From Escherichia phage vB_EcoS_PNS1, in sequence record NC_073063.1: a stretch of 43,945 nt of DNA; one strand, written 5' to 3'. The notes under the pieces are model-generated. The model was not told where the DNA came from and made no database searches. It saw nothing but the letters and a program-made list of their open reading frames with translations. A program made the translations under genes and the position numbers. Positions 9,756 to 25,088 of this stretch are shown one piece after another (position 1 is the first letter of the stretch; every line of letters starts with the position of its first letter).

Positions 9756-9998
9756 TTAATAATCAATGACGCAGTTTGAAGGCGAACCAATCCTTCGGTG
9801 TTCGTGGCTAATCTCCTGGCACCACTGACCCGTATAAGGTAGCTTTTCGGTATCGTAAACCAAAGACCCGTCTTCATGTCGCTCAATAGGCTGAGGTATT
9901 ACACCCGAATTTGGAACGCCTGTGTTTACGCCATTGCCACATGCTGTCATCAGAAGGCACGCCGCGGGTATTATCAGATTTTTGATTAAAGTTTTCAT
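9756..9998 (-). CDS. small lipoprotein, candidate Cor/Llp-like superinfection exclusion protein
   Basis: Internal ATG at 9998 with GGAG RBS gives 80 aa starting MKTLIKNLIIPAACLLMTAC (signal peptide plus lipobox-like Cys); sits between J and tail fiber genes. Confidence 0.55.
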   Translation of the reverse strand: MKTLIKNLIIPAACLLMTACGNGVNTGVPNSGVIPQPIERHEDGSLVYDTEKLPYTGQWCQEISHEHRRIGSPSNCVIDY

Positions 9999-10078
9999 GG
10001 TATAATCTCCGGTATTGGGTTGAGTTTTAGTATTACACCGCTCAATCAAGAATGCAACCAATTTAAGAGGATTTAGCT

Positions 10079-23545: not shown

Positions 23546-23797
23546 TTATTTTGTCTCCCAGCGGTCAATTGTTTTTGCTTCGGATGCAACGGCGAAGCGA
23601 ACATATTCCAGATTGGAGTCAGCCCAAATATAAAAGTCGGGATTAGTAAAGGTGGTGCGCTTAATTTGCGCGGGGGTGTTGCGGCGTTTATCAATTACGG
23701 CAACGCGCGACTGAAAGCTGCCGATGCGTTCGAATAGCCAATAATATGGGCGCTGGTCGCGGGAATCCACCGCCTCGATTAGCGTGAAGCGTGCCAT
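23546..23797 (-). CDS. hypothetical protein
   Basis: 83 aa, ATG 23797 with GAGGA RBS. Confidence 0.5.
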   Translation of the reverse strand: MARFTLIEAVDSRDQRPYYWLFERIGSFQSRVAVIDKRRNTPAQIKRTTFTNPDFYIWADSNLEYVRFAVASEAKTIDRWETK

Positions 23798-23810: not shown

Positions 23811-23837
23811 AAAAATAAGCCCGCAGATTAGCGGGCC
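23811..23837 (-). terminator. rho-independent terminator after first early gene (minus strand)
   Basis: Stem ggcccgc/gcgggc followed by T-run on the minus strand. Confidence 0.45.
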
Positions 23838-23844
23838 GGATATA

Positions 23845-24357
23845 TTAGTCTTCCAGTTCGAAATATGTTTCGACGATTTCTTTCAGATCTTTGTGGAAGT
23901 CTTCTACGTCGTCATCTTCCAGTTTTGCGATCGATTTGATCTCGAACGCTTCCAGCAGGTCGTCAAATTCGTCGTTGGCATCGTCGTCATCACCACCGGC
24001 GATAATCGCGGCATACTGTTTGATTTCGTCGCGCATCTCTGCCAGCGGGTCGGCATCTTTCTTACCTTTGCCTTTCGCCGGTGCTTTTTTACCCTTCGCC
24101 GGTTTTTCGTCTTCGGCTTCTTCATCGTCGTCATCTTCTACGACTTCTTTTTTGGCCTTACCTTTAGCCGGTGCTTTTTTGGTTTTCGCCGGTTTTTCGT
24201 CTTCATCGTCGTCATCTTCTACGACTTCTTTTTTGGCCTTAGACGGCTTCTTGTCTTCCTGCTTACCAACGGCAGCGCCAACGGTTTCATAATGCTTAGC
24301 GATGGTTTCCAGTGCTACTACGCCGCGAGTGATCAGGTTTACGATTTGCTCAAACAT
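23845..24357 (-). CDS. acidic tandem-repeat protein, first gene of the early operon
   Basis: 170 aa from ATG 24357 (GGAGA RBS); two copies of KKEVVEDDDDE(D/E)EKPAK.KKAPAKGK plus acidic C-terminus; an upstream in-frame ATG at 24537 has no RBS. Confidence 0.6.
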   Translation of the reverse strand: MFEQIVNLITRGVVALETIAKHYETVGAAVGKQEDKKPSKAKKEVVEDDDDEDEKPAKTKKAPAKGKAKKEVVEDDDDEEAEDEKPAKGKKAPAKGKGKKDADPLAEMRDEIKQYAAIIAGGDDDDANDEFDDLLEAFEIKSIAKLEDDDVEDFHKDLKEIVETYFELED

Positions 24358-24553
24358 GGTATATCTCCGATTGGTTAAGTTTATGTGTCGGCAGTAAACT
24401 TCGTCGGTGGCCTTAACATAGTGCCAGGTTACGCGTTCTCCCTTTCGGGTAGTGGACCTGGTTATATAATCACGGTTGGGAATCCTGACACTTCGATCCG
24501 GCCCCTGCGTTGCCCCTCTCCAGTTTGCGTCCTGCATCCTGTCGACGAGGTGA

Positions 24554-24582
24554 ATATTAGATTGGTTGCAGAAGGGAGTCAA
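24554..24582 (-). promoter_or_regulatory. sigma70-like early promoter (minus strand)
   Basis: Minus strand reads TTGACT, 17-bp spacer containing CTGCAACCAAT, then TAATAT. Confidence 0.5.
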
Positions 24583-24590
24583 CAACTAAT

Positions 24591-24627
24591 TTAAAAAAAA
24601 AAGCGCCGAAGCAAAATGCGACGGCGC
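24591..24627 (-). terminator. hairpin plus T10 run (minus strand) upstream of the early promoter
   Basis: Inverted repeat gcgccg/cggcgc followed on the minus strand by ten T. Confidence 0.4.
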
Positions 24628-24758
24628 TAACCAATAAGAGACAATGAGACGGGAGTATTATTACACGCGTTCGCGCCCGTTTCAATATTCCAAAGGAGTT
24701 GACACCCCGCGGTTTTAGGTGTAGTTTCGTTGGTCATTAACCAACCGGAGACAGAATA

Positions 24759-25088
24759 ATGAATATCAACGACGCAATCGAAATGTTAACTAAAACTGTT
24801 TGCAGTGAGACTAGCCGGTCCTGGGCGTATACCGATGCCGTGGGTGCGGTGCTATTTGAAATCGAACGTCTGCGACTTACCGAAAAAGCATTGCGCGCGA
24901 AGCTGGAATTACTCAACGGTACGGCAGCCAGCAAGCTGCAAAAACACAATGAAGAAATGGAAGAATACAAAAAACAGGTTATCCGTCTACGTGAGGAAGG
25001 TAAATCCTGGGCCATGATCGCCGAGCTAACCGGAATTAATCAGAGCACAGTGCGCTCATGGGTACGCAATAATAAAACTTCTAAGTAA
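24759..25088 (+). CDS. HTH DNA-binding protein, candidate transcriptional regulator
   Basis: 109 aa; C-terminal SWAMIAELTGINQSTVRSWVRN helix-turn-helix; first plus-strand gene after the divergent region. Confidence 0.6.
   Translation: MNINDAIEMLTKTVCSETSRSWAYTDAVGAVLFEIERLRLTEKALRAKLELLNGTAASKLQKHNEEMEEYKKQVIRLREEGKSWAMIAELTGINQSTVRSWVRNNKTSK

Follow-up and report, generated by a model that had tools for sequence, protein, structure and literature searches.

What is the role of a highly acidic protein whose gene opens a leftward operon in the genome of an Escherichia coli siphovirus, and what is contained in the long leader that precedes it? These questions are raised by positions 23,845 to 24,357 of the sequence record of Escherichia phage vB_EcoS_PNS1 (NC_073063.1), the whole stretch of which (43,945 nucleotides [nt], referred to as the window) represents a nearly complete Dhillonvirus genome of 43.9 kb. 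An initial annotation, made from the sequence, had described the gene as the first early gene, encoding a tandem-repeat protein that may act as a DNA mimic against host defences. We found that the gene lies in a compact expression unit composed of a sigma70-type promoter, a structured leader RNA, an A/C-rich spacer with a Shine-Dalgarno (SD) sequence, the open reading frame (ORF) of the acidic protein, and a hairpin terminator. The leader is a conserved, covarying, and phage-restricted RNA family that has no Rfam entry and appears to be undescribed, and it is the most novel element of the locus. The protein has a catalogue entry but is uncharacterised, and its gene belongs to the core of a replication module that is widespread. 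The features of the unit are as follows.

24554..24582, minus strand: sigma70-like promoter, with the -35 hexamer TTGACT at 24582-24577, a 17-nt spacer, and the -10 hexamer TAATAT at 24559-24554; transcription is predicted to start at about 24547.
24387..24546, minus strand: conserved structured leader RNA of 160 nt, found once in the window by covariance model R1 (147 bits, E = 4e-44).
24358..24386, minus strand: A/C-rich, unstructured spacer with the SD sequence GGAG at 24368-24365, 8 nt 5' of the ATG.
23845..24357, minus strand: ORF of the acidic protein (PHROG 3127), from the ATG at 24357 to the TAA at 23847-23845, encoding 170 residues; the coordinates include the stop codon.
23811..23837, minus strand: intrinsic-terminator-like hairpin with a T-tract; a 7-bp stem (six G-C pairs) with a 6-nt loop is followed by TTATTTTT.

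The leader was recognised in an intergenic alignment of 21 loci as a sharply bounded block, which was about 98% identical even in a relative in which the protein was 51% identical. The predicted transcription start coincides with the first base pair of the RNA within 2 nt. The leader had been put at about 190 nt and suspected of being structured; the distance from the -10 hexamer to the ATG is indeed 189 nt, and the structure is evident from covariation, not from folding energy. Its parts are as follows.

24546-24539 paired with 24394-24387, minus strand: closing stem P1 (8 bp).
24536-24526, minus strand: P2 hairpin with a GGA loop.
24521-24470, minus strand: invariant core GGAGAGG..AACGCAGGGGC..AGGAUUCCCAACCGUGA.
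24461-24424, minus strand: variable P7/P8 arm.
24413-24399, minus strand: 3' junction AGGCCACCGACGAAG.

The fold was derived from an alignment of 22 distinct sequences (197 columns) that was anchored by hand on invariant strings. Such anchoring was needed; with a plain MAFFT alignment as input, RNAalifold detected the structure only in part. The proposed fold has 44 pairs in ten helices with two branch points. Standard pairs were formed in 96.9% of 897 cells, compared with 32–39% when the partners were slid by 1–3 columns, and the covariation score was 0.443, compared with 0.052 or less in the controls; the observed values were reached by none of 500 shuffles. Changes on both sides were found in 21 of the 44 pairs, compared with 2–7 in the slid controls. 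The pair counts of P1, P2, and P7 are inflated towards the model, because these three helices were themselves fitted by hand in the alignment. P3 (pair 46-163, A-U vs G-C) and pair 36-174 covary in unfitted columns, and P8 lies in anchor-defined columns and still covaries. P1, P2, P7 (5–6 bp), and P8 are each represented by three to five different pair types, and the compensatory changes in the block include CCAGG..CCUGG, CCCGG..CCGGG, and CCUGG..CCAGG. Pair 60-75 is U-G in 16 of the 22 sequences; therefore, the structure is on the sense strand of the gene. The GGA triplet in the P2 loop is present in all 22 sequences. Covariation gives no information on helices P5 and P6 or on a proposed AGUG/CACU loop-loop pseudoknot, all of which are invariant. 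The single-sequence folding energy was no better than that of shuffles on either strand (z = -0.7 for the leader). Rfam 15 yielded nothing at E ≤ 1 in a 1.8-kb stretch and nothing at E ≤ 10 for the element in the window or in phage Arya, and 13-mers of the leader motif were absent from the open-access literature full text. A 10-mer match in a TnpB/IscB paper was to a umuDC target and was dismissed as a coincidence.

By blastn, the leader block was found in 170 phage records, with 132 Dhillonvirus-type copies and about 37 diverged copies; the carriers are virulent phages from several families. The diverged copies are present in Tempevirinae of the Drexlerviridae (tunus, swan01, slyngel, JK16, Motto, and KMI8), in Jilinvirus (Arya, PT1, and MQ-4), in Sortsnevirus (sortkaff and IME279), and in BUCT618 and Alux-21. 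Every copy falls in a gap without annotation, has the orientation of the genes on either side, follows a sigma70-like promoter directly, and is placed 35–60 nt before a start codon. At least ten unrelated genes are found downstream of the RNA; those outside Dhillonvirus are unrelated to one another and to that of the acidic protein. In every phage type, the spacers after the leader are rich in A and C and poor in G, and they contain neither a terminator nor an anti-SD hairpin. An invariant 21-mer of the leader was found in 18 IMG/VR contigs and, among 185,579 species genomes, in 1 contig, which is a 42.7-kb phage-like contig of a metagenome-assembled genome; the type-specific pattern was found in 8 metagenome contigs. 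A chromosomal, prophage, or plasmid origin was rejected, as searches of 5,426 complete E. coli genomes and 72,556 plasmids yielded nothing. As separate observations, the leader RNA of phage Motto heads an operon that includes cytosine methylase genes, and the leader is carried by Warwickvirus/Hanrivervirus (loci L054, L078, and L091), Drexlerviridae genera that stood out in the BASEL study for their high resistance to the bacterial immunity systems tested, which is a correlation only.

An obligatory tie between the leader RNA and the acidic gene was rejected, not only in view of the other genes that the RNA precedes outside Dhillonvirus but also in view of Jersey-like phages that carry the gene without the RNA. 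In one 41.3-kb phage (L070/L084 vs L038), a homologue of the acidic protein and the leader RNA are both present but at different places, the RNA preceding a 105-residue protein with a lipoprotein-like signal sequence. Because they are separate in this phage, the leader RNA and the acidic protein can be regarded as independent modules. We infer that the leader is an accessory, portable, and promoter-proximal module that is independent of the gene downstream. A tie to the terminator was likewise rejected, as Dhillonviruses lacking the element retain the terminator. Natural deletion alleles (L007, L012, L013, L018 at about 9990–10000, and L029) retain the first 9–13 nt (GTCGACAGG) and the last 10 nt or so of the leader, with the promoter, SD sequence, gene, and terminator intact.

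With respect to the role of the leader, invariant junction nucleotides surround the covarying stems and, therefore, a specific tertiary fold that binds or catalyses something is suggested. It is quite possible, although somewhat short of probable, that the leader is the founding member of a new functional RNA class specific to virulent enterobacterial siphoviruses. Candidate functions are those of a ribozyme, of a riboswitch responding to a host or immune signal, and of an element that reprograms the polymerase or ribosome, and the RNA could serve as a portable promoter-plus-RNA cassette heading early operons for host-takeover or anti-defence genes, that of the acidic protein included. Of 19 Dhillonvirus loci, 4 have lost the interior of the leader in a clean deletion but keep the promoter, gene, and terminator, which counts against the cis-acting role considered next. 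Because the deletion alleles keep both the gene and the terminator, the leader is dispensable for expressing the acidic gene and for passing the terminator.

The leader would be expected to act in cis on its own early transcript, and it would more likely bind a protein (RNA polymerase, the ribosome, or a CsrA-type factor) or protect the 5' end than sense a metabolite. The P2 hairpin, GCA(A)GGAUGC with GGA in the loop, resembles the CsrA hairpin obtained by systematic evolution of ligands by exponential enrichment. A cis-acting leader of this protein-binding or 5'-end-protecting kind, CsrA-type binding included, is conceivable but doubtful.

The location of the leader directly after the promoter at the head of the operon, whatever the downstream gene, could also suit a processive antiterminator similar to the put RNA of phage HK022, which is composed of two stem-loops of about 70 nt and binds the beta-prime zinc-binding domain of RNA polymerase. 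The nascent leader would bind RNA polymerase, resulting in read-through of the terminator after the acidic gene and, in other phages, of other terminators of short early operons. A same-strand terminator-like hairpin is present 0.6–2.1 kb downstream in most carriers, the window included, and a riboswitch-type expression platform is missing, both of which are consistent with antitermination. However, such terminators may simply end operons, the Dhillonviruses deleted for the element are viable isolates with the same promoter and terminator, and an RNA of 160 nt with a multi-helix junction differs from the two-hairpin put RNAs. Thus, a put-like function is unlikely.

The long invariant runs in the junctions and loops, flanked by freely covarying stems, together with the possible loop-loop pseudoknot, are what is usually seen with a tertiary-folded pocket or active site, and they point to a ligand-sensing riboswitch or a self-cleaving ribozyme of a new class. 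The spread over unrelated gene contexts resembles that of small ribozymes, and the lack of an Rfam match would also be in line with such an RNA. The downstream genes, however, share no function, there is no terminator or SD-sequestering platform, a cleavage-site signature is not recognisable from the sequence, and the pairs of the pseudoknot are invariant and, hence, without support from covariation. We therefore regard this reading, too, as improbable. A riboswitch of the classical type, in particular, is unlikely because the A/C-rich spacer is free of hairpins and followed by a normal SD sequence and because no common function is found downstream. Finally, a trans-acting decoy RNA was ranked lower than both the antiterminator and the riboswitch or ribozyme. 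The leader, with the hallmarks of a tertiary-folded functional RNA, is short and present in easily engineered E. coli phages, with natural deletion variants for comparison, so that its function in stability, translation, antitermination, sensing, or catalysis is directly testable.

Recognition of the leader RNA also corrects annotation, as many records extend a coding sequence or call spurious ORFs across it. Several GenBank records start the coding sequence of the acidic protein far upstream (207–239 residues) or call small intergenic ORFs across the RNA (L006 2821-3534; L088 567-1193; P0009, P0062, P0067, P0071, and P0078), and such "hypothetical protein" features covering the leader RNA are probably mis-annotations. 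In the window, a longer ORF of 246 residues from a TTG at 24585 was rejected as an artefact because the homologues all start at MFEQ/MLEK, as the 170-residue ORF does, and because it crosses the non-coding leader RNA, which also precedes unrelated genes.

The promoter and the terminator, which the initial annotation had proposed at the same positions, are present, and the gene looks like a separate transcription unit, as had been suggested; its description as the first gene stands only in the sense of the first gene of the leftward operon. The promoter scored 9/12 in a consensus scan. Promoter-like sites occur in the region at chance frequency (7 found vs 6.0 expected from shuffles), and every Dhillonvirus locus has both hexamers, as have two diverged relatives (L005/L029). 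The terminator hairpin directly follows the stop codon, and the next gene starts 14 nt further on, at 23797. Its stem shows compensatory changes among the Dhillonvirus and diverged loci (GGCCCGC/GCGGGCC, GGGCGGC/GCCGCCC, and GCCCCGG/CCGGGGC), and the hairpin is kept even where the protein is only 40–50% identical, with or without the leader RNA. Because of this conservation among relatives, the promoter and terminator signals are credible. In some Dhillonviruses, an insertion of about 130 nt with a 37-residue ORF lies between the stop codon of the acidic gene and the terminator (L009 10516-10698, L011 8512-8694, and L002 3378-3491); the window is without it.

The acidic protein has a computed isoelectric point (pI) of 4.47, with 52 Asp and Glu residues against 30 Lys and Arg residues (net -22). 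An alignment of 37 homologues divides it into three modules, which are a near-invariant N-terminal amphipathic helix (residues 1-24 in the alignment), a poorly aligning linker, and a strongly conserved C-terminal domain (residues 105-170 in the alignment).

24277..24354, minus strand: N-terminal amphipathic helix (residues 2-27), with invariant L8, R11, V13, A15, E17, I19, and A20.
24055..24264, minus strand: disordered polyampholyte linker (residues 32-101), with both repeat copies inside.
23848..24054, minus strand: acidic C-terminal domain of three helices (residues 102-170), net -20.

The two copies of the Lys-rich and acidic repeat noticed initially are real, being encoded by ungapped direct repeats of 89 nt each (24051-24139 and 24141-24229; 76% identical) that specify the duplicated segment KAKKEVVEDDDD..EKPAK.KKAPAKG; the array was not reported by Tandem Repeats Finder, owing to a 6-nt indel. 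Residues 23-99 are disordered in the AlphaFold model (predicted local distance difference test [pLDDT] below 50). In 99 Dhillonvirus-type cluster representatives, linker lengths span 20 to 84 residues and the mean net charge of the linker is +0.15; there are 0, 1, or 2 repeat copies in 21, 49, and 29 of them, respectively. Because the linker is net-neutral, disordered, and variable in length and copy number, the tandem repeat is a charge-balanced spacer, which is indel-prone, hypervariable, and dispensable, and it is not the source of the acidity. The anticipated DNA-like charge array was, thus, not borne out by structure prediction, the repeat being a disordered linker and not a rigid one.

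The acidity that is conserved sits in the folded C-terminal domain, and the strongly acidic C-terminus noticed initially is accounted for by this domain, with a pI of 4.05 for the last 69 residues. Its helices (104-121, 125-137, and 151-166) are predicted with a pLDDT above 90. Its invariant residues include the aspartates D123, D125, D129, D133, D148, and D150, in addition to R109, G122, F131, L134, L135, K145, L146, V151, F154, and Y165. Just before this domain, a basic patch is present in every family member, including a natural linker-less variant of 115 residues; in distant members it may read KRGRPAK (AT-hook-like) or KPKRKPR. The N-terminal helix has a pLDDT of about 70, and in the 115-residue variant its pLDDT is below 50, with no confident docking onto the C-terminal domain as a monomer, and hence the models suggest that it serves oligomerisation or partner binding. 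In some distant members the acidic C-terminal domain is present in two tandem copies, and others have KRGRPAK or RGR-rich linker motifs; such distant members (P0121, P0126, and P0134) have 208–212 residues.

The protein matches the PHROG 3127 profile over its full length (E = 7.2e-53), with residues 1-170 aligned to profile positions 1-178. This small family is found only in phages, with 179 homologous clusters among 5.8 billion proteins and 66 representative clusters among 1.84 billion proteins. No relative was found in Pfam, NCBIfam, or the Protein Data Bank (PDB), the Pfam scan of the protein and 30 members yielding only sub-threshold compositional matches and the PDB sequence profile search yielding nothing at E ≤ 10. 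A fold search with the C-terminal domain gave only generic three-helix-bundle matches, and that with the N-terminal helix was uninformative as well. Family records include 153 from Dhillonvirus and, by tblastn, 484 from Guernseyvirinae/Cornellvirus phages with a SETP3-type protein. Many of the latter are labelled as "13.88 kDa late protein" after Salmonella phage MB78, a name of which the basis was not traceable. Identity with several known genes was rejected; anti-Tmn (ORF35 of SMS22, with a beta-sheet C-terminus and in a subset of phages), Ksap1 (74 residues, between methyltransferase and phosphatase genes), and the published escape loci for SSB (single-stranded DNA-binding protein) and for DNA polymerase are all different genes.

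The 5.5 kb around the locus are 92–93% identical to those of 143 E. coli siphoviruses (e.g., Gluttony_ev152, SECphi4, welsh, and PTXU06). Transcription diverges from a 401-bp intergenic region (24358-24758), which is the site of the cumulative GC-skew minimum. Rightward of this region, a helix-turn-helix (HTH) protein and an AAA_25 primase-helicase are encoded, and leftward the order is the acidic gene, two small ORFs, a DUF2800 PD-(D/E)XK exonuclease, a DUF2815/T7 gp2.5-like SSB, PolA, and an SNF2 helicase. The acidic gene is fixed between the primase-helicase and the exonuclease-SSB-PolA-SNF2 string in each of the 50 loci compared. This synteny is kept though the neighbouring replication proteins have diverged to 28–65% identity, and even in loci where the primase-helicase changed strand. 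Diverged syntenic loci are found in Jerseyvirus (SETP3 ORF42, 178 residues, adjoining the exonuclease), Kagunavirus, and Cornellvirus. The acidic gene is, therefore, a syntenic core member of a replication-recombination module across several genera and not a patchy accessory gene.

As for what the protein does, we tentatively favour an abundant accessory factor of the replication-recombination block. In such a role, the basic patch (or patches) immediately preceding the C-terminal domain would contact DNA, the N-terminal helix would mediate self-association or docking, and the acidic domain would bind the basic DNA-binding surface of a partner, which may be the phage SSB, the exonuclease, the primase-helicase, or a host DNA enzyme. 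The protein would thereby load, displace, or shield its partner. The gene's own promoter and the conserved terminator hairpin fit a higher expression than that of the downstream enzymes and a stoichiometric, accumulating product; judging from these signals, the protein may be highly expressed. The "late protein" label of the orthologues would suit such a product and likewise hints at abundance. Several points weigh against an accessory factor of this kind. All the functional steps are deduced, because no homologue has a known function; the N-terminal helix and the C-terminal domain have no informative fold match; and DNA contact through the linker cannot need much of the linker, because it shrinks to 20 residues.

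An unlikely alternative is a decoy similar to Gam or T7 gp5.9, in which the acidic domain, possibly dimerised via the N-terminal helix, would fill the DNA-binding site of host RecBCD and thereby protect linear phage DNA and the products of the adjoining exonuclease/SSB recombination system. In lambda, gam sits with bet-exo, and in T7, gene 5.9 is next to gene 6; the acidic gene is immediately upstream of the exonuclease and SSB genes in all 50 loci. The charge of the C-terminal domain with its conserved aspartates and the conservation of the gene in phages of RecBCD-bearing Enterobacterales are also consistent with such a decoy. Moreover, in a recent report, Dhillonviruses were robustly blocked by P2 OLD, a system triggered by RecBCD inhibitors, Gam and gp5.9 among them. 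However, OLD has other triggers, such as origin hairpins, and no Dhillonvirus trigger has been mapped. Neither the sequence nor the fold of the protein resembles Gam, gp5.9, or Abc2; the conserved basic patches would be superfluous for a pure DNA mimic; and a strong promoter with a dedicated terminator exceeds the need for titrating a few RecBCD molecules. It is possible that the acidic C-terminal domain acts as a decoy for a DNA-binding protein of some kind, RecBCD being an example.

The DNA mimic of the initial annotation, an Ocr/ArdA-like protein made first and blocking type I restriction-modification or another DNA-targeting defence, is very improbable: the protein is strongly acidic, its gene comes first after a conserved sigma70-type promoter, and other anti-defence genes such as that of anti-Tmn exist in Dhillonviruses, but no similarity to Ocr, ArdA, Gam, gp5.9, or a solved structure was found by sequence (Pfam and PDB included), profile, or fold, the acidic/basic repeat lacks order and net charge and is variable, the gene keeps core-gene synteny across genera and hosts, the known anti-defence or sensed proteins of Dhillonviruses (anti-Tmn ORF35 and Ksap1) are different genes, the closest relative with a name is labelled as a late protein, and Dhillonviruses are described as sensitive to type I/II restriction compared with the base-modified siphoviruses Nonagvirus/Seuratvirus.

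The acidic protein, taken here tentatively as a replication accessory factor, is encoded by over 600 coliphages and Salmonella phages with sequenced genomes and still labelled as "hypothetical". Its carriers include many therapy candidates and test phages for defence systems (SECphi4/6/18 and BASEL Bas14-18), and identifying its partner would supply a missing piece of a very common replication module.

Some further elements were observed in the 401-bp intergenic region and next to it. A likely rightward promoter for the HTH/primase-helicase operon (24699-24762, plus strand; TTGACA at 24699, a 17-nt spacer, and TAGTTT) is back-to-back with a second leftward promoter-like site, which has an extended -10 element (TTGAAA-17-TGTAATAAT; 24685-24657, minus strand). 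Between the hexamers of the latter lies a G+C-rich near-palindrome, GGGCGCGAACGCG, which is operator-like and a candidate site for the adjacent HTH protein. About 30 nt past the second site is a hairpin with a T10 tract (24628-24593, minus strand; -16.2 kcal/mol, z = -3.6), and the two together predict a terminated transcript of about 55–60 nt just upstream of the promoter of the acidic gene. This arrangement is conserved in all Dhillonvirus loci, and the predicted transcript could be a small RNA, a replication primer, or an insulator. The HTH protein (109 residues; 24759-25088, plus strand) has the public labels "DNA recombination nuclease inhibitor gamma", "transposase", or "resolvase"; its only matches were to helix-turn-helix domains (HTH_23 and Sigma70_r4_2), and the Gam label is unsupported.

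Compared with known systems, the acidic protein shares with Ocr (gp0.3) and ArdA that these are also small and very acidic phage or plasmid proteins with genes placed first in an operon. However, Ocr and ArdA are rigid, fully folded dimers with charges tracing B-DNA, whereas 40% of the chain of the acidic protein is a disordered neutral linker, its acidic part is a three-helix bundle of about 65 residues, and its gene is core and syntenic, not accessory. Lambda Gam and T7 gp5.9 are, similarly to the acidic protein, helical and acidic and encoded beside phage exonuclease and annealing/SSB genes, but the acidic protein carries an extra basic linker and has no homology or fold match to them. The proposed role would be closer to that of phi29 p6, or of the acidic tails of T7 gp2.5 and T4 gp32, than to that of Ocr, a likeness by analogy and not by sequence relationship. 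Phi29 p6 (a histone-like early protein), T7 gp2.5, and T4 gp32 are abundant replication-module proteins that combine a basic or amphipathic DNA-contacting element with an acidic segment, and these acidic segments mediate partner or DNA exchange.

The leader RNA, for its part, resembles HK022 put and other promoter-proximal leaders (EAR, riboswitch aptamers, and CsrA-bound leaders) in that it is cis-encoded, structured, and placed right after an early promoter, and it is larger and more complex than put. The closest comparison for the locus is with the MB78-type orthologues of PHROG 3127. These are only 28–40% identical, their linker is unrelated (rich in Pro, Glu, Lys, and Arg, without the KKEVVEDDDD repeat), and the intergenic region of SETP3 is 133 bp and has no long leader; nevertheless, they occupy the same slot upstream of the DUF2800 exonuclease and have the same N-terminal helix, charged disordered linker, and acidic three-helix C-terminal domain.

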